From a virus (Duplodnaviria; Caudoviricetes): a stretch of DNA of 51,495 nucleotides. Below the pieces are notes generated by a model. That model was not told the DNA's origin. It saw only the letters and a list, made by a program, of their open reading frames with translations, and searched no databases. Below are positions 1,932 to 51,495 of this stretch, one piece after another. The stretch lies in the IMG/VR virus record IMGVR_UViG_3300037423_000673, positions 1 through 51,495 of that record. The stretch is one strand, 5' to 3'. Position 1 is the stretch's first letter. Every line of letters starts with the position of its first letter. The position numbers and the translations under genes are program-made.

Positions 1932-2002
1932 AAATAAAGTAATTTGATGGCAACTTAGAATTAGCAGATGTGAGTAAAACTGATGTGAAGGAGACTGCTA
2001 AT

Positions 2003-30025: not shown

Positions 30026-30677
30026 TCTCCATATACCTCTTATTGATAAATTTTTCATTGATTGGGGAAGTCAATGCATATATTACATCCCAACCTCTTT
30101 CCATTCTACAATGTACTGTTTGAGGATTAATAGAATAAATATCACTCCATTCAGTAATTGTTTTTATTTCTCCATCAATTTCAACGTAATGATTATTTCT
30201 TTTATTAAAACCTTGCTCCTTCATTGTTACCCATCTGCAATTTGAAGGCTGATAATTTCCATTAACATCAATTCTATCTAGTGTTAAATCATCTCTGTAT
30301 CCATTTGCCAAAGACCAGTTATAGAAATTCATAAAATCATCAAGCCAATCTTTACAGATGAATATTCCTCTTCCGCCATAGTTCTCATAATGAGTTGCAT
30401 TTTGGTTATAGCATCTTGAAATCATACCATAATAAATTCCATAAATTCTACTATTTTTTAATCCATGTGTTTTATTTTCATTTGTTAATTTCTCACTTTT
30501 GTAACAACCACATGAATGTACTTTTCCACTTCTTAAATCCCCACCAGTGATTTCTTTCTCATTTCCACATTCGCATTTACAAAGGAATAAGACTGCTCCT
30601 CTTTTCCGTCCGATCTCTTTTAATACAGTCAATCTTCCATAAACATTTCCTATTTCATTTTTAGAACTTCTACCCAT
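30006..30677 (-). CDS. Free-standing HNH homing endonuclease-like protein
   Basis: YGRLTV, CKCECG, SCGC, YGGRGI, TLDRIDVNGNY.P.NCRW. Confidence 0.8.
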   Translation of the reverse strand: MGRSSKNEIGNVYGRLTVLKEIGRKRGAVLFLCKCECGNEKEITGGDLRSGKVHSCGCYKSEKLTNENKTHGLKNSRIYGIYYGMISRCYNQNATHYENYGGRGIFICKDWLDDFMNFYNWSLANGYRDDLTLDRIDVNGNYQPSNCRWVTMKEQGFNKRNNHYVEIDGEIKTITEWSDIYSINPQTVHCRMERGWDVIYALTSPINEKFINKRYMENEKDIL

Positions 30678-36830: not shown

Positions 36831-38090
36831 TTATGAAAATAGGTCATCTAGTTCAATATTAGATGGTTTTGAATCGGATTTCTTTTCATCAGTTTCCCAC
36901 GGTAAATCCGTTACATCTGCTTCTTTTTTATCATTTGTAACTGGAACATAAACTAAATCATCTTCTTTATAAGAAGTTTCTACTGCGCCTTCTCTAAAGT
37001 CATTATCATCGTTAACTTTCAAAAGAACAGGTTTGAGTAATCTTGATTCTTCGGTTGTTTCACCTAACATTCCACCTCTAGGTGCAAAGTCTTCAAGTTT
37101 GTTCCACCCAAATTCAATTGCTTCTTTTTGTTGTGGAGTTAAATCATTATATGTAAACTCAACTTGGTCAGCACCCCTAAAGACACTAACTTCCCATTGT
37201 AGATGATAAACTCCTTTACCTTTCACATTGAATTGGTTTTTATAAAAGTTTAACATTTTTACGTGCATTTCGTTTTCCAAATCTAATTTAGATGCATTGA
37301 TGATAAATTGTTGTGGGAAGAATTGATCTTTTTTGCTTTTACTATCATAAGCAATTACATAACCATCAACATAGATTTTCTTCTCTTCTTTAAAATCCTT
37401 TTCATCCAATGCATCTTTTGTAAAAAATACATCGTAGGTTGCTCTTAATTTTGCAGCAGTTTCATTTGGTACAATTTCAATGTATTCTGGCTTGAATTTA
37501 CGCATATACTTACCTTTGTATTCTTGATATTCAATTCGACCAGTTACTTTAAATTTACTATCCTTATGTTTTTCTAACTCATCAGATAAGAATACTACCG
37601 CGTCATATTCATGAATGAATTCATGACGATCTTTAGCTTTCTCATGCATTTCCTGTTTCAGAGATTTCAACTTCGACTTTTCTTCGTCAGTTAATTCATC
37701 TTTATATTCTAGCATTCTAATTTCATATCCCAATTTAGCAATGGCTTCTTTTAATTCTTCATCCTTGGTAAAATCAATTACAATTTTCTTGAAATCAGCT
37801 ACCATATCAACTGTATCTTTGCTCAATCTGTCATCCCAAGGAATTTCTAACTTAGATCCATTTTGATTTTCTGTCCCCTTACTGAAAGAGAAAACTTTAT
37901 TTTGTTTACTTCTGGAGAATCCTCCGTACATTTCTAAGAATACACTACTTGTTTTTGATTCCTGTACTGCAAAGTTAAGTCTGTGACCTTCCCAACCACT
38001 ATCACTAGCATTTACGTTATAGAATTTATCTCTATTTTTAGGAATGTAAATGTTACCTACGAATTCAAATGTATTGTATAGTCTTGCCAT
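36831..38090 (-). CDS. Putative single-stranded DNA-binding protein (YorF-like)
   Basis: N.FEFVG start, acidic tail DLPWE...DDLFS, position in the replication operon. Confidence 0.6.
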   Translation of the reverse strand: MARLYNTFEFVGNIYIPKNRDKFYNVNASDSGWEGHRLNFAVQESKTSSVFLEMYGGFSRSKQNKVFSFSKGTENQNGSKLEIPWDDRLSKDTVDMVADFKKIVIDFTKDEELKEAIAKLGYEIRMLEYKDELTDEEKSKLKSLKQEMHEKAKDRHEFIHEYDAVVFLSDELEKHKDSKFKVTGRIEYQEYKGKYMRKFKPEYIEIVPNETAAKLRATYDVFFTKDALDEKDFKEEKKIYVDGYVIAYDSKSKKDQFFPQQFIINASKLDLENEMHVKMLNFYKNQFNVKGKGVYHLQWEVSVFRGADQVEFTYNDLTPQQKEAIEFGWNKLEDFAPRGGMLGETTEESRLLKPVLLKVNDDNDFREGAVETSYKEDDLVYVPVTNDKKEADVTDLPWETDEKKSDSKPSNIELDDLFS

Positions 38091-38232
38091 ATGTATTAAA
38101 TACCTCCAAGTTTATTATGTTTAGTGTTATGTTATATCTTCGCTGCCTCATCTCTGCTCCACTGCCTCAACTATCTCGGCTCCATGATCCCTCTTCACAA
38201 CCACCACCTTTCAAGTATCATCTACATTTCAA

Positions 38233-38272
38233 ATAGTAACATATTATTTTATAACTGTAAATGATTATTTTA
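38233..38272 (-). promoter_or_regulatory. Replication-operon promoter TTTACA-17-TACTAT with conserved operator
   Basis: AAAATAATCATTTACA at 38256-38271; extended TG. Confidence 0.75.
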
Positions 38273-38288
38273 TATGTATAAATCTAAA

Positions 38289-38304
38289 TAAAAGTTGAGT
38301 TTTA
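38289..38304. repeat. TAAA-N8-TTTA junction palindrome overlapping the PspC stop codon
   Basis: TAAAAGTTGAGTTTTA. Confidence 0.55.
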
Positions 38305-38589
38305 ACTTGGACTTGGCATTATGAATACAAGCACTAGATAAACTAAAACACCTGAACCACCTAATAAACTAAATACCACAAATCCTGCTCTTACCAATGT
38401 TGGATCAACGTTAAAGTATTCAGCCAATCCCCCACATACGCCAAAGAAAACTTTATCTGAAGACTTATGTAATATCTTTTGTACGGTTTGAGTTTGTTTT
38501 GGTAAGTTAATTTCATCAGCATATGAAACACTGACACTGAATGTTAGAAAGCAAATGGTTAAAAGGGATATTAATAATTTTTTGTACAT
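38302..38589 (-). CDS. PspC-domain protein with N-terminal signal peptide
   Basis: DKVFFGVCGGLAEYFNVDPTLVR...YLVLVFIMP; RBS GGAGG before ATG 38589. Confidence 0.85.
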   Translation of the reverse strand: MYKKLLISLLTICFLTFSVSVSYADEINLPKQTQTVQKILHKSSDKVFFGVCGGLAEYFNVDPTLVRAGFVVFSLLGGSGVLVYLVLVFIMPSPS

Positions 38590-38605
38590 TGCATCCTCCT
38601 TTGTT

Positions 38606-39439
38606 TTACTTCCCACTCGGAATATTAATCATTGGAGTACTATTCCCCATTTGATAATTTGGGAGTTTCCCGTCCCACTTCTCAACCCACATCTTCTGAA
38701 TAACCAGTTCATTCAATGCTTGTGCTTGTTGTTGAGTAGCCTGTGCCTCAATTTTCTTAACCTCTGCATCGGCTTTAGCTTTAGCAATAGCAGTTTCATT
38801 CTCAATTTGTTGTTTCTGTTGATTTGCAGTTGCTTGTTGTTTTCCTAATTCAGCACTTGCTAATGCTTTTTGTGAATCTGCCATTCCAGCAGGACTTCCT
38901 ACGCTTGTAAAACCAAATGTACCTAATTCGATTCCCGCGTTTCCTAGTTGAGTCTTCAACTGTTCGTTAATTTCAGCAGTGACTTGTGCCTGTTTGGCAC
39001 CTTTAATGTCATTCCAACCATATTTATGTGTGACTTGATTGACTACATTCTTCATCGTTGGTAATACAATGCTATCTCGAACATAATCAATGTCCTTACC
39101 ACCTACAGCCTGATATAATGCGGTGACATTCTTTGTGCCAATCTTCCATGTTAAACTTGTGTCTACGTTTAACTCTTGTTGGTCAGCAGTCCCAATTCCC
39201 CATGCTGCTTTATCATTTAATACTAGAGATTGCATATATGTAGGATATTCTTGTACTCCAACTGTCCAGCCTACCCAGTGCCAACCTTGACTTAACTCAG
39301 ATACTTCACCATCCATATGTTTAACAATACCAACTTGACCAATACTAATTTTTTCAATTCCACCAATTGCATATACGGCTCCTGCAAGCAATCCCAATCC
39401 TACTACTCCTGCTCCAATTAGAAAACTATTTTTGCTCAT
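38606..39439 (-). CDS. SPFH/band-7 membrane protein
   Basis: N-terminal TM, GQVGIV, GWHW, A/Q-rich coil, EKWDGKLP. Confidence 0.85.
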   Translation of the reverse strand: MSKNSFLIGAGVVGLGLLAGAVYAIGGIEKISIGQVGIVKHMDGEVSELSQGWHWVGWTVGVQEYPTYMQSLVLNDKAAWGIGTADQQELNVDTSLTWKIGTKNVTALYQAVGGKDIDYVRDSIVLPTMKNVVNQVTHKYGWNDIKGAKQAQVTAEINEQLKTQLGNAGIELGTFGFTSVGSPAGMADSQKALASAELGKQQATANQQKQQIENETAIAKAKADAEVKKIEAQATQQQAQALNELVIQKMWVEKWDGKLPNYQMGNSTPMINIPSGK

Positions 39440-39593
39440 TAATATGATCCTCCTCATTTGCTTCATCTTTAAGTCTATTTGCTTCATGTTTAATTGCTTT
39501 TCCTATTGGTTTAAACAATCCATTGAGTGCGTAGAAAAGCAATACACATGCTAAGAAAATAACGAATCCTATTACTACAATAATCTTAAACAA
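39426..39593 (-). CDS. 55-aa single-TM protein upstream of SPFH
   Basis: RBS AAGGAGG, TTG start; translated by hand. Confidence 0.6.
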   Translation of the reverse strand: MFKIIVVIGFVIFLACVLLFYALNGLFKPIGKAIKHEANRLKDEANEEDHINEQK

Positions 39594-39669
39594 TTAACAT
39601 CCTCCTTTTCTTTTAAAAAGTTTCTTTGATTGGATTATGTATTATCGTGTTGTCCCTCTTACATTTCTT

Positions 39670-39716
39670 ATAATATCACCTATCAAGAATCTTGTAAATG
39701 ATTATTTTACATTTAT
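39670..39716 (-). promoter_or_regulatory. Promoter TTTACA-17-TATTAT with full-length operator
   Basis: 25-nt identity with 1627-1651. Confidence 0.75.
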
Positions 39717-39904
39717 GCTAATTTATTTCTTAACCATTCTTTCAACTTCATCCAAGCTTCTCCATCCGTCTTTGCGTGAATTTCTCTGATCTTATGAGCC
39801 TTTATTCCACCAACGATAAATTCTTGATTTGACTTGAATCTAAATCGTGTTATCTTATGGCCTTCCAAGAACTCAGTTTTAATCAATTCCCATCCTTCAA
39901 CCAT
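39713..39904 (-). CDS. Hypothetical protein
   Basis: RBS AGGAGTGAG; abuts the hydrolase stop. Confidence 0.6.
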   Translation of the reverse strand: MVEGWELIKTEFLEGHKITRFRFKSNQEFIVGGIKAHKIREIHAKTDGEAWMKLKEWLRNKLA

Positions 39905-40654
39905 CTATCTCACTCCTTTCAAAAATTCAACCACATCTCGGTTAAACCTATCCTTTTCCTCAATACAACTCAAATGGCCTGAACAATAAAATCTAATCCT
40001 TGCTCTCGGTGTTAACCAGTATTGATACAATTGGTTTGGCATTGGTGTAGTTGTGTCCCATATTCCTGCACAAATTAAAACTGGAACCTTTACACTTCTC
40101 AGTACATCACTATAATCATGCCTCAACAATACCGAAGCTGTCTGCACATATGTTTTCCTATTTATAGTAAATGCATTTCTTGCTGTATCCACTATATTTT
40201 TAGTTTTAAACACAATACAATTGTTAACTAGATCCTCTATGTATTCATCATTTGTCATACTGTCTAGTTTTTTCTTACGATCATTCACACTTATCTTCAA
40301 TAAATCGTCTAAAACAAACGATATTGAATTACATAAAATGAGCGTTTTAACTAAGCTTGATTTTTTCTTATAAATTTCTTGTGCAACACATCCACCCAAA
40401 CTAATACCACATATATGAGCAGAATCAATCTTTAGATCCTCTAGCAAATGAATTACACATGTAGCCATGTATTCAATGGTAATATTTCCAACATCAACAT
40501 CTCTTAGGAAATCTACTACAATCAATCTGTAACCTTGGTTTACTAATTCCAATTGTCCATTCCACATATTCACCGAGGCTCCGAGACCACTCAGTAAGAC
40601 TAAGCATTCATCGCCTTTCTCGCCTAGATCCAAATAGTTAATAACGTCAATCAC
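39905..40654 (-). CDS. Alpha/beta hydrolase (enol-lactonase/RsbQ-like fold)
   Basis: LLSGLG oxyanion loop, GISLGG nucleophile, GIWD, SGHL. Confidence 0.88.
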   Translation of the reverse strand: MIDVINYLDLGEKGDECLVLLSGLGASVNMWNGQLELVNQGYRLIVVDFLRDVDVGNITIEYMATCVIHLLEDLKIDSAHICGISLGGCVAQEIYKKKSSLVKTLILCNSISFVLDDLLKISVNDRKKKLDSMTNDEYIEDLVNNCIVFKTKNIVDTARNAFTINRKTYVQTASVLLRHDYSDVLRSVKVPVLICAGIWDTTTPMPNQLYQYWLTPRARIRFYCSGHLSCIEEKDRFNRDVVEFLKGVR

Positions 40655-40781
40655 CCTCTTCTAATAATTCGATAATGTATTCTAAATCATCTACCGCAGT
40701 TGGAGACAACTCTTCATATCTCTCCATAAATCTCTTTAGTAACCTGTATGCTAATTTAATTTTATTTTTATTACTGTCCAT
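40647..40781 (-). CDS. 44-aa hypothetical protein
   Basis: Translated by hand (MDSNKNKIKLAY...); overlaps the hydrolase start. Confidence 0.5.
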   Translation of the reverse strand: MDSNKNKIKLAYRLLKRFMERYEELSPTAVDDLEYIIELLEEGD

Positions 40782-40810
40782 CTTAAAACTACTCCACTCC
40801 AAACGACCCC

Positions 40811-41017
40811 TTACGAGGCGTTTTGATATTTATTATATTTTATTTCTATCATTTTAAGCAGGATAAAAGCGATTTTGTTTCTACCATTTTCATTAATCTT
40901 TTCTTTTAATTCCTTGTATTCTATTTCAGTATGTATCACCTTTTTAATTAATCTAATTACCATCTTACTATTAACATCAAACTCTTCGATGACTTTAATA
41001 CTAAAAAAATCCTCCAA
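40811..41017 (-). CDS. Hypothetical protein, first gene of the hydrolase operon
   Basis: RBS AAGGGGATG; follows a strong promoter. Confidence 0.55.
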   Translation of the reverse strand: MEDFFSIKVIEEFDVNSKMVIRLIKKVIHTEIEYKELKEKINENGRNKIAFILLKMIEIKYNKYQNAS

Positions 41018-41054
41018 TTCTATGCATCCCCTTTGGCTATGGCTTATTTGTAAA

Positions 41055-41200
41055 TTAAGTATAAAATACTTTAAGTATAATTGTCAATCCATTTTTGCCA
41101 TTTAATGTAGAATTTGTTATCGAATTGTTATCGAATTTATTAAGAAACTATTAATTAAAAGAAATTAATTATACTAATTGTATATTTTTATGATACAATT
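41055..41200. promoter_or_regulatory. Divergent control region: minus promoter TTGACA-18-TATACT with TTAAGTATAA repeats; plus -10 TGnTACAAT
   Basis: TTAAGTATAA at 41055 and 41071, palindrome ATACTTTAAGTAT 41066-41078, tandem TTGTTATCGAA repeat near 41114-41135. Confidence 0.65.
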
Positions 41201-41220
41201 CAAGTATGGAGGTGATATTT

Positions 41221-41625
41221 GTGACATTTGGTGAAAGGTTGAGAATGTTAAGACAACAGTATGATATGAAACAGAAAGACCTAGCAATAATACTAGGACT
41301 TTCATCTGATGCAATATCTAAGTTGGAGCGCGGAGAAAGAAATCCTACATCTGAAACGTTGCAAAAATTAAGCAGTAAAGAAGTATTTGATGTTTCTGTT
41401 GATTACCTTCTATGTAAAACCGACATACCAACAAACGAAATAGAACAAACAATAATCAATAATATAAATGATGACATTGAAAATATGGATAAAGTGATTG
41501 ATGTATTCGCTGAAAAACATGGAATATTATTTGATGATGGAAAAAGATATACGAAGGAAGAACTAGAAAAAATTATTAAGCATTATTTAAAAATGGTTAA
41601 TGCATTTAAAGACTTAAACTCCTAA
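41221..41625 (+). CDS. XRE-family repressor (ImmR/CI-like)
   Basis: FGERLRMLR, ISKLERGERNP, VSVDYLL; RBS GGAGGTG before GTG 41221. Confidence 0.9.
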   Translation: MTFGERLRMLRQQYDMKQKDLAIILGLSSDAISKLERGERNPTSETLQKLSSKEVFDVSVDYLLCKTDIPTNEIEQTIINNINDDIENMDKVIDVFAEKHGILFDDGKRYTKEELEKIIKHYLKMVNAFKDLNS

Positions 41626-41629
41626 AAGA

Positions 41630-42319
41630 TTAAGTATGTAAGACTATTATAAACTTAATCTCATCTTTGTAGACAACTGGAAGGGCAACAGCAAATAAGT
41701 CCATGACAGATCCATCATGGTGATACCCATTGTAATATATATGCTGCGCCTTTTTCGACTCCAACACCATCATTTGCGTCTTTGCTACTTCATCAAGACA
41801 ATCGGGAGTTATTAGTGGGAATATACTTTGGTTAATTATTTCTTTCCTTTTGAACCCAGAAACATCAACCCATTTATCAGAAACATATTTTACAGTTCCA
41901 TCTAAGGTGAGAATGTTAATCATTCTTTGTTCAGGTTTCCATTTGTCGATATTGATTAAATATGCATGAACTTCTTTTACGATATCATCTTGAAACTGTG
42001 GGCTAAAATAAATTAATACTTTGTGTTTTCTATAATGATCTGTATTGTCATAGACTACAGTTTCACCATTCCATGCCCTCTCGTAATAAGGCTTGAGTAG
42101 TTCAATTCTATACTCTGGGATAGAATTTATTAATATTTCTCCAACAAAATGATCTAAACTTAATGCATATTCTTTAATCATTTCACCTTTCATTTCTAAG
42201 TGAATAAATGAATTGTCAACTTTTTTAAAACTAAAAAACGCTCCATCTTTCTCTGGTGATATATTTTTGCTGGTTAAGTAGTTGCCAAACTTGCTAATGA
42301 TGGAGTTTAATCGTTCCAT
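41630..42319 (-). CDS. Tandem-PAS sensor protein with no output domain
   Basis: YYERAWNGETV PAS/PAC-like unit and DGTVKYVS..W...SGF...EII.QSIFPLI.PD PAS unit. Confidence 0.8.
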   Translation of the reverse strand: MERLNSIISKFGNYLTSKNISPEKDGAFFSFKKVDNSFIHLEMKGEMIKEYALSLDHFVGEILINSIPEYRIELLKPYYERAWNGETVVYDNTDHYRKHKVLIYFSPQFQDDIVKEVHAYLINIDKWKPEQRMINILTLDGTVKYVSDKWVDVSGFKRKEIINQSIFPLITPDCLDEVAKTQMMVLESKKAQHIYYNGYHHDGSVMDLFAVALPVVYKDEIKFIIVLHT

Positions 42320-42337
42320 TTCGCACTCTCCTGTGTT

Positions 42338-42381
42338 CGAACACCTGTTCTCATTGTATCGTATTCCGTTCTATCTTTCAA
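42338..42381 (-). promoter_or_regulatory. SigA promoter TTGAAA-17-TACAAT with LexA/DinR SOS box immediately downstream
   Basis: AGAACAGGTGTTCG (42351-42338) matches 13/14 of CGAACRNRYGTTCG; -10 at 42358-42353, -35 at 42381-42376. Confidence 0.8.
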
Positions 42382-42585
42382 GATATTTATGTTCTGTATA
42401 GTAAAATTGTACTAAATAATTAACGCTGAAAAAATACATTTTTATGCTGTTGCAATGTTATGTCAAGATTCGACAAAAATAATTAGTGAATGTCGATAAT
42501 ATTTTATGCTAAAATTTACCTATCCTTTTTGTCTTTTTGTTATAATATGTATCGGGAGTTATATTATGATCATGGGGATATATAA

Positions 42586-42789
42586 ATGGACAAAAAGAAA
42601 TATAGGCCAAGAATTAGACTACTACGCGAACATATTGGTTATAGCCAACAAGGATTGGCTAAGAAAATAGGCGTAAGTCAATCGCTATTATCTCGTTGGG
42701 AACGAGGAGAATCTTATCCACCTTTCCCAAAATTAAAACTATTGTCTAGTTTACTTCAGTGTAGCATAGACGATTTGTATGATATATGA
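42586..42789 (+). CDS. Small XRE/Cro-like HTH regulator
   Basis: SQQGLAKKIGVSQSLLSRWERGESYP. Confidence 0.88.
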   Translation: MDKKKYRPRIRLLREHIGYSQQGLAKKIGVSQSLLSRWERGESYPPFPKLKLLSSLLQCSIDDLYDI

Positions 42790-42790
42790 G

Positions 42791-42821
42791 ACGTTCTTAT
42801 CTTTTTGATAAGGGCGTTTTT
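42791..42821 (+). terminator. Rho-independent terminator
   Basis: ACGTTCTTATC...GATAAGGGCGT followed by T-run. Confidence 0.7.
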
Positions 42822-42941
42822 GCTTTTTTATAAGAAATTAAGCCTACTAAACACATTTAAGACACACTTAAAAATAGGCATATAATACCAATAGAACTAT
42901 TATGCAAATATATAGTACAATAAGTTCTAAAGGTGATGTAA

Positions 42942-43133
42942 ATGAACTTGGAACTTATTGATACTAAAGTTCGGGAATATTTAAAAAAATCAAGGACTCC
43001 ATGTGTTTTGCTATACATAGACATTTTAAATGAAACAGACGAATATATAGAATGTATTGCTCACTTGCAATGTAAAAGGACAAGAAAAATTCGTAAGGTG
43101 ATTATGAATAAGTTTAATGGTGAGGTTATTTAA
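42942..43133 (+). CDS. Hypothetical protein
   Basis: RBS AAAGGTGA. Confidence 0.6.
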   Translation: MNLELIDTKVREYLKKSRTPCVLLYIDILNETDEYIECIAHLQCKRTRKIRKVIMNKFNGEVI

Positions 43134-43197
43134 ATAATTAATTTATAATAATTTTATTTGTATGTACGATCCAAGCCCCAGATGGGACTTGAAATAG

Positions 43198-44214
43198 TTA
43201 TAGATAATCCTTGTATAATTTTTCAATATTTTGAATCGAGATCCATTCCTTTAAAGGAGACCAGTTGTAAAACTCATACTTGCCATTCTTTACTTTAGGC
43301 ATCTGATAATGTTCACATATTTCTAAATACTGTTCTTTGTCCAAAACTCCGTCTCGCTTATATAGAAGATATCCCATGTAAATCTGACCACTTCTAAAGA
43401 TGTTTTTGCTGGTCATCATTGGATTTTCCCATAATTCAGCTATAGAGGCTATTCTTCTATAAATCACAGATGGTAGAACTGTACTCATCGGAGATGCGTT
43501 ACGAGTAGTCCCAACACGTATCACATAATCATTATCGATAAGTGGAGTCCTATCTGTTTGGTTAGGTCTCGTGTCAGCTTCGCCATTCTTTTTGAGATAT
43601 TCTGTTTCGTTTGCTGCTTTTCTAGCCAAAGCGATGCAATCTCTATCTACTTTTAACTCTCTTTTTTTGCCTTTTTCATCAGTCAAATGCAAAACATTTT
43701 CATCGTAATCAATATCCCGTTTTTTTAAATTACATAATTCATGGACTGTCATTCCTGAAAACAAGGCAACGAAAATAAAACCATCTTGCGCGTTCTTGCA
43801 TCCAGTATCCTCATTTGTTAGCAAATCTAATTCATCTTTCGAGATATAAATCATTACGTTTTTGTCTACGAAACTTTCTATAAATGCTTTGTCATTTTTA
43901 ACCCCAGTTAAAGGATTTAGGTTGCTATTAGTTGTTCTATCGCCCATTCCCCATTCTATATAGTTATACACTGTGCTAATATTCGACCTTGAAGCAGACT
44001 TAGTTAAAGGATTTAGCGATGCTAAAAGTTCTTTAATTTCTTCTAAGTTAAAATCCACTAAATCTTTTCCCCACATACTCTCCAGCATATAACTTTGTTT
44101 GAATATTCTTTTGTACGTTTTATAAGTTGCCTCTTTATATTGATTCAAAAATCTTTCTTTCCGTTCAGGCTCATACATTATATCATCGTATATTTGATTA
44201 GGAGCATTATGCAC
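43198..44214 (-). CDS. mrpR: MrpR (YopR)-like master repressor, degenerate tyrosine-recombinase fold
   Basis: KERFL...KDL.DFN..EI N-terminus; SGMTVHEL lacks the catalytic Arg; IFRSG in place of HxxR; follows a YopQ-like gene as in SPbeta. Confidence 0.75.
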   Translation of the reverse strand: MHNAPNQIYDDIMYEPERKERFLNQYKEATYKTYKRIFKQSYMLESMWGKDLVDFNLEEIKELLASLNPLTKSASRSNISTVYNYIEWGMGDRTTNSNLNPLTGVKNDKAFIESFVDKNVMIYISKDELDLLTNEDTGCKNAQDGFIFVALFSGMTVHELCNLKKRDIDYDENVLHLTDEKGKKRELKVDRDCIALARKAANETEYLKKNGEADTRPNQTDRTPLIDNDYVIRVGTTRNASPMSTVLPSVIYRRIASIAELWENPMMTSKNIFRSGQIYMGYLLYKRDGVLDKEQYLEICEHYQMPKVKNGKYEFYNWSPLKEWISIQNIEKLYKDYL

Positions 44215-45598
44215 TTGTTCTCACCTCTCCAACATTCAATTCATTAAAGTATTTTCTTATTCTACCTTTAGGATTTCCTTTCACATTACCTTTATCATCA
44301 AGTACACTTATCTCTTTCCACAGATCGTTATCTCGACTAAAATCAATTCCATCTAGAATATCACTAATTTTTTCAATTGGAATATCATTATCTCTAAATT
44401 TTTTAGCTAATAATATAAATCCATAAAACATGTGACTAATATTGATTAAACTTTTATCTCGAACAGTGGGAATATTAGTCAGAAACGCTTCCCCATTTGA
44501 CATGAAAATTTCATCTAAGAATTTAGAAAGGTATTTAGACAATTTTATTGCCTCTGGTTTATCATTCTCATCGACTTTGAATTCCGATTGGATTGCATCC
44601 TTCAAAATACTAAATGGCACAAGTAAATTTGAATGTGGTGGAACGCTATCTGATAATGTAACCTTATCTCTTAATTCGCTTCCTTTTTGCACTCTTTCAG
44701 CAATAAATGAATAAATATTTGAACTAGCATCTTTTTGGTCAAGATTTGACTTGGATATTTTCATACCTTTGTTTATTTGACTAAAGTGCTGGATAGCCTC
44801 TTCAACATCATAATTCAATATACGAACTTCAAAATTCATATCTACACTTTGATAATTAGGATCTGATAATACTGCACTTATAGTTGTAAGTCTGTTAAAG
44901 CCATCTAATATGTCAAGAAACGAACCGTCAGTAACGGTTAAAGTCATGTTGTCTTCGTCATAAATAACTTCTTCGCCTTCTTTAGAAGTTCCCATACGGG
45001 CGTTTAACACAATTGTAGTACTTTCTAATCTTCCAGTTTGCATTAATTTAGCCATTTGTTTTACGTTTGTAGGACTAACTTTTGGAGATTTAACCATAAC
45101 ATCTGGATCTTCTTTTGAAGTACGTTCATTAGCTTCGCGCTGGCAATCGTAGTTATAATAAATTAATCCTGAATCATTTAAATCTTTTAATTCACTAGCT
45201 GCAATAATACCTGTAAAATGTCTATCTTTAACTTTCACCATTTTATTTCTAAACGTATAAGGGAACTCAATTTTGCGGTCTGTTTTAATCTTTTGATAAA
45301 CTTCCGAATTTCTAAGTTCTGCTGCTCCAAAGTAATTTTCAGGATTTATCTTTGAGGAATTAATATCAGTAACAGGAAGCGTTGCTTTATATGCCACCAT
45401 CATCAACAAGCATAATTCCCTAATTTCAAGTTCACTCAAAGGAGTCATTCCTGAAATCCATTGTTGAGATTGACCAATTGGAATCTTATTATTAGTTAAT
45501 TCATTTTTAATCTCTAAAACTACTCGTCTATTATGCTTAATATCATCTAAAAAACCTCTTAGATTTTTCTCGATTATATTACGTTCAACTTTAGGCAT
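44207..45598 (-). CDS. DndB/DGQHR (ParB-like) protein, SPbeta YopQ-like
   Basis: YN..CQR, ILDGFNRL, F.QIN motifs; RBS GGAGG before ATG 45598. Confidence 0.75.
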   Translation of the reverse strand: MPKVERNIIEKNLRGFLDDIKHNRRVVLEIKNELTNNKIPIGQSQQWISGMTPLSELEIRELCLLMMVAYKATLPVTDINSSKINPENYFGAAELRNSEVYQKIKTDRKIEFPYTFRNKMVKVKDRHFTGIIAASELKDLNDSGLIYYNYDCQREANERTSKEDPDVMVKSPKVSPTNVKQMAKLMQTGRLESTTIVLNARMGTSKEGEEVIYDEDNMTLTVTDGSFLDILDGFNRLTTISAVLSDPNYQSVDMNFEVRILNYDVEEAIQHFSQINKGMKISKSNLDQKDASSNIYSFIAERVQKGSELRDKVTLSDSVPPHSNLLVPFSILKDAIQSEFKVDENDKPEAIKLSKYLSKFLDEIFMSNGEAFLTNIPTVRDKSLINISHMFYGFILLAKKFRDNDIPIEKISDILDGIDFSRDNDLWKEISVLDDKGNVKGNPKGRIRKYFNELNVGEVRTSA

Positions 45599-45644
45599 AT
45601 TTTTATCCTCCAATATATACGAATACATATTTATCCTTACTTAT

Positions 45645-45674
45645 ATTATAGACGATTAAGTAAGGTTTATACAA
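45645..45674 (-). promoter_or_regulatory. Promoter for the yopQ-like/mrpR operon (TTGTAT-18-TATAAT)
   Basis: Hexamers read directly. Confidence 0.5.
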
Positions 45675-45753
45675 GATTTTTTTACTTTTATAAGGAAAAA
45701 TTGTCCAACATTTTGTGACAAACATATACAAAAAGACAGACTTTTCAATCTGT

Positions 45754-46308
45754 CTAATCCCATAATCGCCAATCTTTAAAATCTCCGGCACGTAAGTAAT
45801 TTCCGAAATTATCTTGGGATGGAAATCCATCAGGATGTGCTGCGTACACCTTTAAAACGATCCTGCAACTTCTGCATTTAACCTCTGTAGTATCTTTAGG
45901 TAAATAGTGATTGCCTCGATCATTGCATACATGACAATAATAATGACATAGATAAACCGTCTGACCATCTCGTTCTTTAGTACCTGACTTCCAAACTTCT
46001 ATATTCTCATTCTCTGTAGTATACACTTCTTGCATCTCAGTATTGTTTTGTAAAGTTTCGGACATTTCTTCTTTGATGTTTTCAATTGTTTTAGTTGACT
46101 GTGGCTCCTCACTTTGAACTTCCTCAAAGAAACCTTTGTATAGTTCCTCAATCCTAGAATAAGTTTTAGACACTTCTAGAATATCTGTAGATATACCAAA
46201 CAATTGGAATACGTTTTGAATGATCATTAGTTTACTTATATTGTCTGCATCGTTAATTTCTAAGTTTGCGGTTTTGTCGCCATCAACTATTTGTATTTTA
46301 ATTTGCAT
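45754..46308 (-). CDS. Hypothetical protein with C-terminal zinc ribbon
   Basis: YYCHVC...KCRSC. Confidence 0.7.
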   Translation of the reverse strand: MQIKIQIVDGDKTANLEINDADNISKLMIIQNVFQLFGISTDILEVSKTYSRIEELYKGFFEEVQSEEPQSTKTIENIKEEMSETLQNNTEMQEVYTTENENIEVWKSGTKERDGQTVYLCHYYCHVCNDRGNHYLPKDTTEVKCRSCRIVLKVYAAHPDGFPSQDNFGNYLRAGDFKDWRLWD

Positions 46309-46325
46309 AATTAGTCCTTTGTGTT

Positions 46326-47000
46326 TTATTCTAAGTTAAATTCAACTTTGACTGCTTGACCTAAAATACGCGCTTTCCTTTTGGGTACCAGTTTTGGTGC
46401 GTACCCTTGGGTGGCCTGAAGAAAAATCTTATCTTCCATATGAAAAACTCTTCTTAGCAACTTGTCACCTTTAAATGAAACCAATCCTATTTTACCATTC
46501 TCAATTTCGGAAACTACTTTTATTTGAACTTTGTAACCTTTTTTAATTCCTTCGCCTTCCATTGAACTATCGGTAACATCATAATAGAAAAAGTCATCTT
46601 CTTTTTTAACCCTTTTTTGATTTCTTCTACTACCTTCGATCCATATTCCATCTTCAGATACCTCATCCTTTAAAGCATATCGTTCTAGGAATATCCTTTC
46701 GCTCAAACCTTCAAGATTATATCTGTTATTCCTTTCGAAAATTCCTAAATAACTTTTTACTGACTCTTCTTCCACTGGAGAAAATCCTGCTAGTACTAAT
46801 AAATCCTCTTTATTCAAATCTAATGCGTCTGATAGCCTAATTAGTTTATCTTTAGAAGGTAAATACTTTCCTCTCTCTACAGCACTTATATAAGAGTATG
46901 TGATTTCAGTTTTCTCCCCTAATTGCCTAAGTGTATATGCTTTCTTTTCTCTGGCCTCTTTTAAAATTTTACCTAACTCAATTTGTGTTGACTCAGTCAT
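46326..47000 (-). CDS. XRE-HTH + degenerate S24 (LexA/CI-like) regulator
   Basis: N-terminal HTH; C-terminal VTDSSM...ENGKIGLV...LLRR...ILGQAV. Confidence 0.8.
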   Translation of the reverse strand: MTESTQIELGKILKEAREKKAYTLRQLGEKTEITYSYISAVERGKYLPSKDKLIRLSDALDLNKEDLLVLAGFSPVEEESVKSYLGIFERNNRYNLEGLSERIFLERYALKDEVSEDGIWIEGSRRNQKRVKKEDDFFYYDVTDSSMEGEGIKKGYKVQIKVVSEIENGKIGLVSFKGDKLLRRVFHMEDKIFLQATQGYAPKLVPKRKARILGQAVKVEFNLE

Positions 47001-47074
47001 TTAATTCACCACCATTGTTCAAGGTGTTTGTTTTGTTGTTTTGCACATTTGTAAGGCATGTTGTTAAAAATTAT

Positions 47075-47178
47075 TTGACAGAATTACAAGCCTATCGTAT
47101 AGTTTAATTGTAGTCAAACTGCACAGGAATTACAAGATAAACAATACATATTACACAAAACTGAGGAGGAATTATAAG
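47075..47178 (+). promoter_or_regulatory. Promoter TTGACA-17-TATAGT with GAATTAYAAG repeats
   Basis: GAATTACAAG at 47081 and 47127, GAATTATAAG at 47169. Confidence 0.7.
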
Positions 47179-47378
47179 TGGAAGTGTACGGGACAATTAC
47201 TATGCCTATTTCAATTAAGGTTGATGCTACGAATCATGATGAGGCTTTAAGAAAAGTTTATGAGTTGATTAGCGACTTAAATTTAAATATTACTGGGCTT
47301 GATTTGCCAACTGTTTCGGGGAAAATACATAAAGTTAATGTGCATGATCATAACATAACTTGGGATGAAGCATTTTAA
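47178..47378 (+). CDS. Hypothetical protein divergent from the LexA-like gene
   Basis: RBS GAGGAGG, own promoter and terminator. Confidence 0.75.
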   Translation: MEVYGTITMPISIKVDATNHDEALRKVYELISDLNLNITGLDLPTVSGKIHKVNVHDHNITWDEAF

Positions 47379-47407
47379 AAACCTCCAATCGTGGAGGTTT
47401 TATTTTT
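47376..47407. terminator. Bidirectional terminator
   Basis: AAAAACCTCCA-AT-CGTGGAGGTTTTT hairpin between convergent genes. Confidence 0.8.
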
Positions 47408-47434
47408 ATGTCTATAAATTAAATCTTTATTTGT

Positions 47435-47851
47435 TTAAAACAATAATTCATTTAAAGCTTTATTGTATTTTTTAACTCGCTCAATGTCCTTTTCGGTTGG
47501 ATTTTTGATTCTAGAAAGATCCTTATTATCATCAATGTCTGCCATTTTTACCAACCTTGCTAAGTCATTCTTTTTAATTCTTCTAATGAACTCCACATAT
47601 GTTTCGTCGTCACGTCTTGTTAAATGTTTAATGGCTTCAATAATTTCATCTGAGAAACCTTCATCTTTTAAATTATCAAAAGAAATATTAGAGTCTTCAA
47701 CAACATCGTGCAACATAGCAACAATCCTAGATTCTTCGCTAGACATAGACAGCATTAATCTTAATGGATGTAAAATGTAAGGATTTCCACCCTTATCTAA
47801 TTGACCACTATGAGCATTTGTTGCAATTATTATCGCTTTATCTAAATTCAT
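47435..47851 (-). CDS. Small HD-domain hydrolase (Mesh1/(p)ppGpp hydrolase-like)
   Basis: AHSGQLDKGGNPYILHP, LHDVVED, VKMADIDDN. Confidence 0.85.
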   Translation of the reverse strand: MNLDKAIIIATNAHSGQLDKGGNPYILHPLRLMLSMSSEESRIVAMLHDVVEDSNISFDNLKDEGFSDEIIEAIKHLTRRDDETYVEFIRRIKKNDLARLVKMADIDDNKDLSRIKNPTEKDIERVKKYNKALNELLF

Positions 47852-47877
47852 TATTTACCTCCTATAAACTGAACCTT

Positions 47878-48078
47878 TTAATGTGTATTAAACTTTACCC
47901 ACATTTCTTCTCCGTTATTTTCATTAATACCCAGAAGTTTTTCCAGCGAACTCCATATTACATATCGACCGTTGATAGAAGCAGTGAATATTTCCTCTTG
48001 TATCTCAACATTTTCACTTTCTCCAACAATCCATTTTAAACCACTTTGGTCAATATATTGTCCTCTAAATTTCATCAT
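47878..48078 (-). CDS. Hypothetical protein (YopX-like N-terminus)
   Basis: MKFRG...W.VG; RBS AAGGAGG. Confidence 0.6.
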   Translation of the reverse strand: MMKFRGQYIDQSGLKWIVGESENVEIQEEIFTASINGRYVIWSSLEKLLGINENNGEEMWVKFNTH

Positions 48079-48117
48079 CTTTCCTCCTTATCCTCTATCA
48101 TAAAACAACTCTTTTAT

Positions 48118-48249
48118 TTAAATTTCAGCCTCAATTTCGTCAAACATTTCAATAAACAATTCATAACTTAAAACATAACATGGGTAAGATTCTGACTGTT
48201 CATCATATATCTTTTTAGTGTGGAATGACACTAATCTTTCACCTGTCAT
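48118..48249 (-). pseudogene. 43-codon ORF without RBS, bounded by two junction palindromes
   Basis: ATG overlaps the end of the 48249 site; no Shine-Dalgarno sequence upstream. Confidence 0.4.
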
Positions 48250-48274
48250 AAAATTAAGCTTTTAAACGAAAATA

Positions 48275-48532
48275 TCACTCATAATATCCATCATAAAAAG
48301 AAATCCTAAACAGTTCTGTAGTAATATAATCCTCTTCTTTTTCAGACCAAACGCTAATCCTTTTTATGACCATATCTGAATCCGAAAAATCAGATACTTT
48401 TAATAATTCATCTAATGAATCCAACTCAATTAACCAATCGTCATTTTCAAGAAAACTAAATTTCCCATTATTCTCATACGCACTTGGATGTGGTTTACCT
48501 TCTGTATACCTTGATTCGATTGCAAATATCAT
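48275..48532 (-). CDS. Hypothetical acidic protein
   Basis: RBS GGGGAG; W.IELDSLDELL...YDGYYE pattern. Confidence 0.7.
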   Translation of the reverse strand: MIFAIESRYTEGKPHPSAYENNGKFSFLENDDWLIELDSLDELLKVSDFSDSDMVIKRISVWSEKEEDYITTELFRISFYDGYYE

Positions 48533-48562
48533 TACTTTTCAACTCCCCATAAATTAGTCATT

Positions 48563-48730
48563 TTACTTCATCAAAATAATCTCTTTAATACTTCTTCTCT
48601 CCAACGGACTACCATTAAAATATATATACATTCTCTGGTTATCCATATCTTCTAATGCATGTATCAATTCTTGTTGTTCAACATCTTTTTCTAATTCAGA
48701 ATTATCCTTAAGAACCACCCTAATTTTCAT
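48563..48730 (-). CDS. 55-aa hypothetical protein
   Basis: RBS AAGGGGATGG; translated by hand; stop starts the 48550 palindrome on minus. Confidence 0.6.
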   Translation of the reverse strand: MKIRVVLKDNSELEKDVEQQELIHALEDMDNQRMYIYFNGSPLERRSIKEIILMK

Positions 48731-48798
48731 TTAACCATCCCCTTGGGTATATTTTACAATATTCAGTGATGTAAGACCATCCGGCTGTTTATATTTAC

Positions 48799-48841
48799 AT
48801 TATATTCTATATCATTTATTTTTACAACTGATAATTTTATA
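48799..48841 (-). promoter_or_regulatory. Promoter TTGTAA-17-TATAAT with upstream operator variant TATAAAATTATCAG
   Basis: Hexamers and operator read directly; preceded by terminator hairpin 48856-48876. Confidence 0.65.
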
Positions 48842-48891
48842 TTTATAAAAGAAAAGAATCTGCTATGCAGACTCTCGATCAAATTTTCCTT

Positions 48892-49392
48892 TTATGCCTT
48901 TTTACTTGCTAACTCTTCTACCAATGTTGTGAATGCGTTCTGATACTTATGCAATGAATTTCTTACTTCGTCCAATTCAATACGGCATTGTGTAAGTTCT
49001 TTCGATTTCTCTACAAAGTTTGATTTCCATTCTTGCACTTCTTCTTTCAACTTTTGAATCTCGCTCTCCATCGCAAAGTATTTATTATCTTGATCCATAT
49101 CCTCACTCTCCTTATAATCCCAATGTTTATAAACAACCTCTAAGTTATCCCTCTGACAGTTAAATTTATTTCCATCCTTATGTATTACTTCCCATTCTTT
49201 ACTCTTTGGTGGGTCTGCAATGAGCCTATGTAGCGTACCAGAACGCAAACCTAATTTCTTGCAATCTCTATCTTTAGGTATACATGATATGTGGCCTGCT
49301 TTATTTACTTTAAGACTATAATATGTATCAAACCAATAATGGTCTTTTTCGTCTAATTGGATTTGTGTATTGTTTTCTAATGTATAAATCAT
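48892..49392 (-). CDS. HNH-domain protein with C-terminal coiled coil
   Basis: LHRLI, HKDGNKFNCQRDNL. Confidence 0.7.
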   Translation of the reverse strand: MIYTLENNTQIQLDEKDHYWFDTYYSLKVNKAGHISCIPKDRDCKKLGLRSGTLHRLIADPPKSKEWEVIHKDGNKFNCQRDNLEVVYKHWDYKESEDMDQDNKYFAMESEIQKLKEEVQEWKSNFVEKSKELTQCRIELDEVRNSLHKYQNAFTTLVEELASKKA

Positions 49393-49709
49393 CTTTTCAA
49401 TCCCATTCGTATATCTATAATTTTATCATCCATTGTCACAGCATTAAATTCTTTAAATTCAACACCTTGGTCAATAAGTTTCATTATCTCGTAATTGATA
49501 TTATGACTTAGATAAAAATGTTCAACTGAGTTAGCCCATACAACAATTTCTCCGCCTTTTATATTTTTTTGTATGTATCGATTAGTAATTGCAGTGGTGA
49601 CGCCATCAGAAAATAAAACTTCTACTTCTCTATGTTCATATGGAATCTTGAAATCGAATAGAAATTTAGGTTTGGCAATAATCTTATCTCCAGATTTAAG
49701 CATGTTCAA
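49389..49709 (-). CDS. Hypothetical protein
   Basis: RBS AAGGAG. Confidence 0.6.
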   Translation of the reverse strand: MNMLKSGDKIIAKPKFLFDFKIPYEHREVEVLFSDGVTTAITNRYIQKNIKGGEIVVWANSVEHFYLSHNINYEIMKLIDQGVEFKEFNAVTMDDKIIDIRMGLKR

Positions 49710-49723
49710 TCTCCTTGTTTTAA

Positions 49724-49909
49724 TTAATTTTTAATATGTGCATAATATCCAACCGCGAACATTGTCAATCCAATCAATACAACCAACTGGCAAAAGAAAT
49801 CCGCAAATGCTTCAGGAATACTTGCTGCTTTCATATTCCATCCAAAAAACCATGTTTCTAATACGTTTAAAATAAATCCTATTGCAATTACAATTAAACC
49901 TTGAAACAT
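49724..49909 (-). CDS. Small two-TM membrane protein
   Basis: Hydrophobic; ETWFFGWN..A.S..E pattern. Confidence 0.65.
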   Translation of the reverse strand: MFQGLIVIAIGFILNVLETWFFGWNMKAASIPEAFADFFCQLVVLIGLTMFAVGYYAHIKN

Positions 49910-49919
49910 TTTTCTGCCC

Positions 49920-50129
49920 CTATCTAAAATTTTGTTTATTTTTAAGTTTAATTTCTAATACTCTAATTGCAGCCTTTAACTCATTTAATAACTCATATCC
50001 ATCTCCATCCCATTCTAACGACTGATGTTGTTTGTGATAAACTGGGAGACCATTGGATAATCTAATGGATACAATTGCTTGATTATCTTTGATACCGTGA
50101 TATTTAATTTTGTGTCGTTTTACTTGCAT
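49920..50129 (-). CDS. Hypothetical protein
   Basis: RBS AAGGAGG directly after a palindrome. Confidence 0.65.
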   Translation of the reverse strand: MQVKRHKIKYHGIKDNQAIVSIRLSNGLPVYHKQHQSLEWDGDGYELLNELKAAIRVLEIKLKNKQNFR

Positions 50130-50154
50130 TGGAACCTCCTTTAAAACTAAGGTT

Positions 50155-50391
50155 TTATTTTATGAAATGAATTTTATTTCCTTCAAATGGTGTATCAGAA
50201 CCAATACTTAAATGTTGACCAAAAATCCCCATCAACTCCCATAATGGAAACTTATAAAAACCATCCCATTCTTTCTTATGTGGGGCATCATGATGTGGCA
50301 TTCTAAATTGTTCATTGTACTCTTCTATAATTTTTTCTCCAAGTGGAGTTAGTTCAACGTAAACTTGCACGTTTATATTTGCTGAAAGCAT
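50155..50391 (-). CDS. Hypothetical phage protein
   Basis: NIN..V.VELT..G...LWELMGIFG pattern; flanked on both sides by palindromes. Confidence 0.75.
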   Translation of the reverse strand: MLSANINVQVYVELTPLGEKIIEEYNEQFRMPHHDAPHKKEWDGFYKFPLWELMGIFGQHLSIGSDTPFEGNKIHFIK

Positions 50392-50438
50392 TTATGTATC
50401 CTCCTTTAAAATCGGGCTTTTATATTTTAAAAAACTTT

Positions 50439-50663
50439 TCAAATACCTAGTTTCTTAATTTCTTCATGATAATTTTTCAACCGTTCAATCGTTTCATCGT
50501 CCCAATCGTATTCGTTCTTAAATTCTTCAAAACACTCATCATTCCATCCGCAGATGATTCCATAAATCCATGCAAGTCTAGGATGACCGCCCCAATCGTG
50601 AGGACTAAATACAATTGCATCATAGATTGATTCGATAATTTCTTTCAATAATTGTTTCTCCAT
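50439..50663 (-). CDS. Hypothetical protein
   Basis: RBS AAGGAG. Confidence 0.65.
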   Translation of the reverse strand: MEKQLLKEIIESIYDAIVFSPHDWGGHPRLAWIYGIICGWNDECFEEFKNEYDWDDETIERLKNYHEEIKKLGI

Positions 50664-50670
50664 ATTTTAG

Positions 50671-50811
50671 TTACTCCTTCCGATAGTCAATCGTATTATC
50701 TTCATTTACTTCCCAATAACAATTACTACAAAAACTTTCATGATCAACAGCCTCAAACAAACCAATCATTTTACCGCATCTTGGGCATTTTTCGGTTTTG
50801 TTTTCTTCCAA
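50671..50811 (-). CDS. 46-aa zinc-ribbon protein
   Basis: TTG start, RBS GGGGTG; CPRC...CSNC; translated by hand. Confidence 0.55.
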   Translation of the reverse strand: MEENKTEKCPRCGKMIGLFEAVDHESFCSNCYWEVNEDNTIDYRKE

Positions 50812-50837
50812 ATTAATCACCCCATAAAAACAATCAT

Positions 50838-51035
50838 TTAATCGTTGCCAATTTCTCTTTCTCTTCTAGTCATCATTTCCTCATATGTCATTCTAAGTTT
50901 GTCTTTCAGATTGTTAGGTATGTATTGCATTAATTCATCATATAGACTATCCATAATAACTTTATCTTCATTTAAGAGCCATTTAATCTTTTCATCTATA
51001 TTCTTATTTAACTTCTTATTTTTCCGCTTGCTCAT
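50838..51035 (-). CDS. Hypothetical protein
   Basis: ORF in array; stop starts the 50825 palindrome on minus. Confidence 0.6.
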   Translation of the reverse strand: MSKRKNKKLNKNIDEKIKWLLNEDKVIMDSLYDELMQYIPNNLKDKLRMTYEEMMTRREREIGND

Positions 51036-51312
51036 TTCCTGTCAACCTCAACCTGATAATATTGTACTTGATATGAGTATCTGGATACCTATCGTAAAAC
51101 TCTTGAATGTTATCATATAAAATATTTACATTATCGCCAATCCCAACAACCATTTGGCTGTCGGGAAACTCTCTGACTACAGCATATTTATATTTACCGT
51201 TACCATTTAATTGCTCTTTGAGTTGTTCATTTTCTTGTTCAAGTTGTTTTATACGTGCTGTCAGTTCTTTGGACATTGTTTTGTTGATACAGGAATTACA
51301 ATTACCGGACAT
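51016..51312 (-). CDS. Hypothetical coiled-coil protein
   Basis: RBS AGGAGG. Confidence 0.6.
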   Translation of the reverse strand: MSGNCNSCINKTMSKELTARIKQLEQENEQLKEQLNGNGKYKYAVVREFPDSQMVVGIGDNVNILYDNIQEFYDRYPDTHIKYNIIRLRLTGNEQAEK

Positions 51313-51328
51313 TTAGATGCCTCCTAAA

Positions 51329-51495
51329 TTACAAAAATTCATCATCTCTTCTAAACTCTCCGAAATATTCTTCTTCGGCTTTTAGTCTCACTTCTACTGC
51401 CTCTTCTTTTGTGTTAAACCTTCCTAAGTAAATACTTTTATTATTTACACCTATTGAAGCCATCCATTTGTTTGACTTTTTATCGAAGTATACTC
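51329..51495 (-). CDS. C-terminal AP2 domain of a probable HNH endonuclease (partial, runs off window)
   Basis: VYFDKKSNKWMASIGVNNKSIYLGRFNTKEEAV...EEEYFGEF. Confidence 0.75.
   Translation of the reverse strand, partial: VYFDKKSNKWMASIGVNNKSIYLGRFNTKEEAVEVRLKAEEEYFGEFRRDDEFL

Follow-up and report, generated by a model that had tools for sequence, protein, structure and literature searches.

The stretch of viral DNA analysed here (the window: one virus record of 51,495 bases, IMGVR_UViG_3300037423_000673) carries short palindromes of the form TAAAA-N6-TTTTA at many junctions of a small-gene array near its end. We propose, with a probability of about 0.6, that these palindromes are tyrosine-recombinase core sites and that the six-base centre of each serves as an address for swapping genes between phage genomes. 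Observed directly are the enrichment of the palindrome, its position at gene junctions, the conserved order of the centres, the reassortment of their flanks, and the linkage of flank to centre. Centres that stay the same while their flanks change suggest that the sites probably serve as numbered joints for gene swaps; the probable cutter is a phage enzyme encoded outside the fragment. The sites are a real feature and have the logic of pdif exchange, but belong to neither the dif/pdif, the integron, nor the PeSL class.

Palindromes at the junctions of the small-gene array

A first, sequence-only reading of this DNA had reported seven exact TAAA-N8-TTTA 16-mers (47865, 48101, 48249, 48550, 50142, 50407, and 50825) and a near match (48879), and all were recovered where it placed them. 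An eighth exact match, absent from that list, lies at 50360, inside gene 50155-50391. The predicted excess at a spacing of eight was also found: the array (47400-51495) has 8 copies of TAAA-N8-TTTA versus 0.7 expected, and none of the other spacers between 0 and 16 exceeds 3 copies. The whole window has 19 copies (7.2 expected), a number reached by 0 of 100 shuffles, and the stricter TAAAA-N6-TTTTA occurs 9 times (0.9 expected). Eleven of the 19 matches are at junctions and 8 within genes, the latter being about the chance number. With at most one mismatch to TAAAA-N6-TTTTA allowed, 8 of 14 junctions in the array carry a site versus 6 of 71 elsewhere in the window, and the eight array junction sites have eight different centres. 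As proposed, a site often starts with the upstream stop codon (5/8 array sites). Five of 60 TAA-ending genes run into TAAA-N8-TTTA, versus two or fewer at other spacings, so stop codons and AT content are an insufficient explanation. The idea that the units are single genes did not hold, as units between sites often comprise several; the one at 48892-50129 holds four open reading frames (ORFs). The sites of the window, some of them next to a ribosome-binding site (RBS), are as follows.

47865-47880, minus strand: TAAAA-GGTTCA-GTTTA; opens with the 47878-48078 stop codon; the RBS of 47435-47851, the HD-domain gene, comes next
48101-48116, minus strand: TAAAA-GAGTTG-TTTTA; one base past the stop of 48118-48249
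48249-48264, minus strand: TAAAA-GCTTAA-TTTTA; between 48275-48532 and an ORF of 43 amino acids (aa)
48550-48565, minus strand: TAAAA-TGACTA-ATTTA; opens with the stop of 48563-48730
48879-48894, minus strand: TAAAA-GGAAAA-TTTGA, a tolerated arm variant; opens with the 48892-49392 stop codon; a terminator-like hairpin and a promoter-like site come next
50142-50157, minus strand: TAAAA-CCTTAG-TTTTA; opens with the stop of 50155-50391, with AAGGAGG directly after
50407-50422, minus strand: TAAAA-GCCCGA-TTTTA; two other phage contigs have this centre too, behind a homologue of 50838-51035 but with a different gene after it
50825-50840, minus strand: TAAAT-GATTGT-TTTTA; opens with the stop of 50838-51035; this site and the two genes behind it are absent from two relatives
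38289-38304, minus strand: TAAAA-CTCAAC-TTTTA; at a junction, opens with the stop of 38302-38616
1559-1574, plus strand: TAAAA-TGAGGG-TTTTA; intergenic, between 52-1416 and 1740-1931
24485-24562, minus strand: 78-base repeat, copy 1; ends in a back-to-back pair, TCAAA-GGTAAT-TTTCA and then TAAAA-TCGCCA-TTTTA (24487-24502)
27751-27828, minus strand: 78-base repeat, copy 2; ends in a back-to-back pair, TCAAA-GACATA-TTTCC and then TAAAG-CGACAA-TTTTA (27753-27768)

Two earlier statements about individual copies did not survive. The copy at 1559 had been said to truncate a gene; this was not confirmed, as the site lies between two genes and no overlapping frame matches a family. Nor do sites form the cores of two long elements, since each 78-base repeat has its site (24487 or 27753) at one end. 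The two repeats are 76% alike, their paired sites are two bases apart, and similar double sites occur in a few other phages; the repeats themselves had no match among the compared loci.

Centres, flanks, and gene change in related phages

By gene content (lysis genes, a serine integrase, replication genes, and a yopQ-mrpR pair) the window is read as part of an SPβ-like phage. The genes yopQ and mrpR (yopR) are adjacent and match PF22822 and PF22823, and the MrpR-like protein is 30% identical to SPβ YopR. The genes that enter the argument are listed here.

44207-45628, minus strand: YopQ/SroE-like protein (DndB family), the anchor for finding relatives
43198-44214, minus strand: repressor like MrpR/SroF, of tyrosine-recombinase fold but lacking the catalytic residues; listed for context and not as the cutter
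35652-36767, minus strand: Sak4-like protein for single-strand annealing, on which the main rival explanation relies
47435-51312, minus strand: array of 14 small co-oriented ORFs, mostly without a known family (HD domain at 47435-47851, HNH-like at 48892-49392)
50838-51035, minus strand: 65-aa gene anchoring the GCCCGA address, with homologues 46-48% identical in contigs L287 and L252

Across the 68 loci around yopQ, many of them near kin, plus the window, the N6 spacing has 355 matches versus 10-36 at spacers 2-11. Phage genomes have 20-45 sites each, in fixed order; SPβ has 34, mostly at stop-RBS junctions, and host DNA beside prophages has no excess. Centres are never palindromic (0/220) and have a G+C content of 40%. 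Arms tolerate a change at position 2 on either side (TCAAA 45 and TGAAA 65, versus 20 and 30 expected), and the clade of the window uses TNAAA/TTTNA arms. Symmetry beyond the arms is weak and confounded by the stop and RBS. Inverted arms at a fixed spacing within the 6-8 bases of core sites (the spike is at N6 only), around an asymmetric centre, bear out the tyrosine-recombinase geometry that the sequence-only reading recognized, with an unpaired, directional six-base centre. A small RNA hairpin for processing or translational coupling at junctions would also suit the stop-RBS position and arms that can pair, but is scarcely credible: predicted folding is 0 to -2.5 kcal/mol and three of eight sites do not fold, the centres are unpaired, the tolerated arm changes break pairs, there is no Rfam match (tRNA and Rfam matches in the window are both absent), and conservation of the centre is not predicted.

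Prophages of the Bacillus subtilis group have the same centres in the same order at differing distances, and 21 centres are common to SPβ and phi3Ts, in order. What lies beside a centre changes on both sides. Among 21 B. subtilis-group loci, GATGCA has 6 flank types on the left and 9 on the right and AGACTG has 8 and 6, versus 1 and 1 for a match inside yopR. A set of 719 sites from 26 records was also compared; registers that overlap, and sites less than 60-70 bases from a locus end, are left out of the flank-type counts. Of the flank types, 110 of 116 on the left and 116 of 117 on the right are tied to a single centre or to a variant within 2 bases. Of 58 common centres, 35 vary on both sides, 7 on one, and 16 on neither; all four flank combinations are present at 5 centres. 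The sole repeated centre in ten long records is a 33-base tandem duplication, and duplicated centres around genes show no clear excess. With both flanks tied, the order kept, and centres unrepeated, the pattern fits exchange between genomes at matched centres rather than free shuffling. Sites that differ in one arm share the flank on the far side roughly twice as frequently as the flank next to that arm (161 versus 72; 38 versus 20), which places the exchange between the arms.

The same observations bear on an integron-like scheme, in which any site recombines with any other and single-gene cassettes excise as circles and reinsert in new order. Such free shuffling would untie one flank, but both are tied to the centre; the order of the 21 centres of SPβ and phi3Ts is kept; half-site twins within 1.5 kb number 40 versus 30 expected (941 sites); and there is no folded single-strand structure. 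Promoterless genes with an RBS behind the site do fit it, as do the SPβ gene yoqG, which lies between a decayed and an intact TTGAAG site, and about five one-sided joints that pair the left flank of one site with another centre (none is the reverse). At four of these joints the two centres are neighbours elsewhere, 150-1075 bases apart, although one may rest on look-alike terminators. The one-sided joints fit a putative loss or gain of a unit spanning one centre to the next left arm. We consider the integron-like mode very improbable, and as the main mode it is largely refuted. Of the earlier idea of a cassette system that inserts, deletes, and shuffles genes, insertion and deletion between unlike sites stands as a minority process (the five or so joints), whereas free shuffling does not.

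Centres are identical between phage groups in 27 of 33 cases, though the yopQ four-fold sites are only 34-41% identical; either constraint or continuing exchange would give such persistence beyond neutral sites. This is difficult to reconcile with a purely regulatory site (a repressor, roadblock, or organiser site for YopP/SroD, YopQ/SroE, or MrpR), whose centres would be kept by descent and at whose junctions genes would merely happen to change. A mere spacer should drift, yet these centres are intact where four-fold sites are near saturation and both flanks have been replaced. The symmetric arms would suit a dimeric binder, and SroE is a second repressor whose action is unknown (10.1101/2025.11.27.690993). 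However, MrpR has ten promoter peaks with a different 15-base motif (PMC10516654) while SPβ has 34 palindromes, and most sites lie between stop and RBS with no room for a promoter. Even though 43% of site-free junctions also break, we regard a solely regulatory role as improbable.

The closer kin of the window (G025, G029, G002, and G005) have a centre set of their own, with 4, 3, and 4 centres shared versus 0.2-0.3 expected, in order except for GAGACA. The centre TGGGGA occurs in four elements with unrelated flanks. Against distant records, the 13 centres of the window gave 4 matches, which we treated as chance. As separate observations, the centre TACGGA recurs in four very distant phages (L043, L089, L096, and L101), and a complete Brevibacillus chromosome (G024 C1, about 2821757-2824094; L166) has the yopQ-mrpR pair alone on a small low-GC island, a remnant that retains a GTGTCA site in common with G025.

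For the window itself, there is a 98% identical YopQ (P0001); blastn of 45700-51495 against phages gave no match, and single-protein scans found no close relatives. Four of its centres were scanned in viral contigs, and results apply to the matches listed, from at least 478 loci. For GCCCGA (50407), two contigs among the matches listed (L287 and L252) have the homologue of 50838-51035 just upstream. A protein-only search with 50838-51035 returned the same two contigs and no others, with GCCCGA behind the homologue in 2/2. An unrelated membrane-protein gene follows the site in both, where the window has a different gene. In the window, 50838-51035 is separated from GCCCGA by the GATTGT site and two more genes. 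Among the window's own copies, GCCCGA is the one that shows the same centre, the same upstream gene, and a changed downstream gene. Two other candidates, L536 (in which the HD homologue is on the other strand) and L306, were rejected.

That the sites mark places of gene-content change, as the sequence-only reading supposed, is supported in relatives. Among 18 loci, homology ends cluster where the sites begin and end (counted from the centre, 43 at +8 and 46 at -8 to -10; the ends are not independent), and 135 of 157 junctions with an exact site are broken versus 206 of 478 without (also not independent). With SPβ as the single reference, 32 of 178 homology ends fall at sites (2.5% expected), and annotated junctions are broken in 12 of 16 cases with a site and 20 of 46 without (p = 0.04). 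The sites are hot spots, not the sole route of gene change.

Short contigs of four sequencing runs, compared with 37500-51495, gave 0 site-ended joints among nine listed and no circles or excision joints among the same nine; most come from the same strain and the test is weak. A 35-base match ending at 48102 was loose on both sides and was excluded from the joint count. Of 180 loose contig ends, 24 were listed, with one repeated end in the array, at 49098, a site-free gene start. Contigs of three runs depart from the window exactly there. The 166-aa ORF at 48892-49392 appears to be an in-frame fusion of an HNH-like part and a coiled-coil gene of 68 aa, the latter with its own RBS at 49098.

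A candidate enzyme and a proposed exchange

The earlier expectation that the active recombinase is not in the window agrees with our results: no intact tyrosine recombinase was found there, and the MrpR-like protein is a match to the catalytically dead MrpR family; in a rough alignment its catalytic residues are missing. In SPβ, MrpR acts as a repressor, has no recombinase activity, and binds SPBRE at ten promoters (PMC10516654). The window has a second repeated intergenic motif, TGTAAATGATTATTTTA(C/T)AT, with four close copies (1627-1651, 28270-28298, 38256-38283, and 39689-39717) and a looser one near 48815-48858, which is a candidate operator of the MrpR-like repressor, analogous to SPBRE.

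SPβ has three recombinase-fold proteins, compared here in a quick tree, of which two, YopP and YomM, are intact. YopP keeps R-K-H-R/K-H-Y in 18/18 ORFs that span all six columns, and its profile is closest to XerA/XerD, with IntI4 weaker. YomM is intact and conserved, but we rank it below YopP because it is absent from site-bearing records (G025, G015, and G018) and present in the site-poor G019. YopP is the best candidate for the cutting enzyme, as judged by catalytic residues and co-occurrence. The gene is a core gene expressed in lysogens (10.1101/2021.11.22.469490, PMC8612738). In kin it is detached from yopQ, by about 43 kb upstream in G025 (if two contigs join; L215 18390-19382) and about 20 kb in G003 (L092 13969-14988). 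In G025 yopP heads the accessory array, immediately behind yonO, which encodes an RNA polymerase, so the yopP of the window may lie beyond position 51495. Frameshifted yopP genes occur in two prophages (L023 8781-9846 and L046 8958-9832) that still have 38 and 7 exact sites.

In the proposed exchange, the arms would bind the recombinase and the centre would form the strand-exchange overlap. When two phage genomes share a cell, crossing over would be confined to sites whose centres match, so that genes between two addresses are swapped; a first crossover would give a cointegrate and a second, at another shared address, its resolution. Unlike centres within one genome may guard against self-deletion. 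On rare occasions, neighbouring sites with unlike centres could perhaps react with each other through a cut at the centre's upstream edge, which would add or drop a unit and create new addresses. The enzyme would be the candidate YopP, encoded beyond the end of the fragment. We tentatively extend this to a genome-wide system, which we hold plausible at somewhat less than even odds, in which YopP and 20-45 ordered, addressed sites would swap non-homologous modules between coinfecting phages and prophages, and rare one-strand reactions at the upstream edge would add modules and addresses.

The main rival explanation is that the site is bound by a non-cutting phage protein, and that its 16 identical bases act as passive microhomology for an annealing protein such as the Sak4-like one. 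The genomic pattern fits a requirement for matching centres, and microhomology predicts the same: under annealing matched centres would be favoured because they lengthen the match, and linkage of flank to centre is explained equally well. The window encodes a Sak4-like protein, and mosaics arise when phage annealing proteins act on homology that is short and diverged (PMC3945230). On the other hand, the strict spacing and the symmetry of the arms would need a second function, and YopP keeps its catalytic residues at about 28% identity. In every one-sided joint it is the downstream centre that is retained, suggesting that the cut is a defined one. Sixteen bases are, moreover, very short for annealing. 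On balance we consider annealing an unlikely alternative to exchange by a recombinase.

Hybrids of SPβ and phi3T made in the laboratory (n = 4) were mapped, with switches of fewer than 20 informative k-mers read as noise. Their nine crossovers are not diagnostic; site use is neither shown nor excluded. The source paper places 15 of 16 hybrid junctions within homology (10.1101/2020.05.06.055103), and ten hybrids are described elsewhere (PMC11984713).

A number of results weigh against addressed exchange by YopP. Eight of the nine hybrid crossovers fall in shared blocks of at least 1.4 kb, none at an isolated site, and the ninth is in 39 shared bases with no site. In the SPβ comparison, 146 of 178 homology ends are off sites and the 20 broken junctions of 46 are site-free; the ninth crossover and the predominance of off-site ends also favour annealing. 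The two GCCCGA contigs are kin of each other and count as one lineage. CCTTAG, GGTTCA, and GAGTTG have no syntenic relative among the matches listed (358 loci), and no locus sharing two window centres is among those listed from 478 loci. The HD gene is preceded by GGTTCA in the window but by TGGGGA in G005. YopP has no match in the 51-kb window. All 13 YopP-bearing records counted have a site excess, a figure that ignores kinship; four of eight YopP-negative virus records have no excess, and the other four (G001, G002, G005, and G017), all 41-64% complete, are site-rich. The site-poor G006 and G007 have a distant intact recombinase beside the MrpR-like gene. Finally, YopP is reportedly SroD, an auxiliary repressor.

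Clean swaps of phage genes at gene boundaries are an old question, and are usually ascribed to chance joining followed by selection or to relaxed homologous recombination. The sites offer a concrete and testable alternative in a model phage, SPβ, which has 34 exact copies and, in YopP and YomM, two intact tyrosine recombinases without an assigned function. The accessory regions concerned contain counter-defence and lysis-lysogeny genes. If the proposal is correct, this would be a natural form of recombinase-mediated cassette exchange on a genome-wide scale, and genome engineering would gain a recombinase whose natural site variants are many and mutually exclusive.

Other features of the window include a 505-aa primase-like protein (1970-3487; AEP-TOTE, C-terminal winged helix) inserted with two small genes between the tail and lysis genes. 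A 104-aa ORF (7871-8185) behind the serine integrase (8220-10181) repeats the zinc-ribbon domain of the integrase and may be what is left of an earlier one. Several genes for homing endonucleases of HNH or AP2 type (16826-17518, 30006-30677, 31778-32563, and 51329-51495) stand alone among the replication genes. The intergenic region 38103-38221, which has no tRNA or Rfam match, has high-depth matches in contigs of other organisms in four runs and is possibly a conserved RNA or a repeat.

Comparison with known recombination and repeat systems

We found no description of the motif in the literature searched, including the accessible text of PMC8270828, a search whose coverage largely excludes subscription journals. 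Several known elements are similar in part. The PeSL cassettes of the T4-type phages RB49 and phi1 are promoter-terminator units of about 100 bases, thought to be recombined by homology and to form mini-circles (PMC2839356). Like them, the palindromes are repeated intergenic elements of hypervariable phage regions with gene gain, loss, and replacement. In contrast, the palindromes span 16 to about 26 bases, contain no promoter, and have individual centres; 7 of 8 array sites have no adjacent promoter or terminator, with one terminator-like hairpin behind 48879. The SPBRE likewise recurs between genes in this phage family, and the protein that binds it has a recombinase fold (PMC10516654). As described, it is set apart as a 15-base element at ten promoters, whereas the palindrome is a spaced one with 34 copies in SPβ, mostly between stop and RBS.

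The array resembles an integron in its short, promoterless, co-directional genes with a site at many junctions and, in G025, in the position of yopP at the head of the array. It differs in that the sites have no attC-like hairpin (16 bases, an unpaired centre, 0 to -2.5 kcal/mol as RNA), the order is unshuffled and each centre is linked to its flanks on both sides, a unit frequently comprises more than one gene, and the window has no IntI-type integrase or intact tyrosine recombinase.

The closest logic is that of the pdif (xrs) sites of Acinetobacter, which are used by the host XerC/XerD, have inverted arms and a variable six-base centre, and flank accessory genes (PMC11705084, PMC6449649). 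Neighbouring pdif sites have unlike centres and plasmids recombine only at matching ones (PMC11705084), as in the cointegration-resolution model of Balalovski and Grainge that was tested there, with site anatomy given in PMC6449649. Unlike neighbours are common to both systems, and exchange between replicons at matched centres would be as well. Despite this like logic and the six-base centre, the phage sites are not pdif sites, because their inner bases are AAAA/TTTT instead of the ATAA/TTAT of pdif (PMC11705084), and TATAA in phages is at chance level (26 versus 25 expected). Both phage arms follow one consensus. Sites of the dif/pdif class have two distinct arms in 28 bases (11-6-11); the outer arms of the phage sites are weakly symmetric, with the stop and RBS as confounders. 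The phage sites also number 20-45 per genome, in fixed order, and are present in the prophage and not in the flanking host DNA; and the candidate enzyme would be encoded by the phage.

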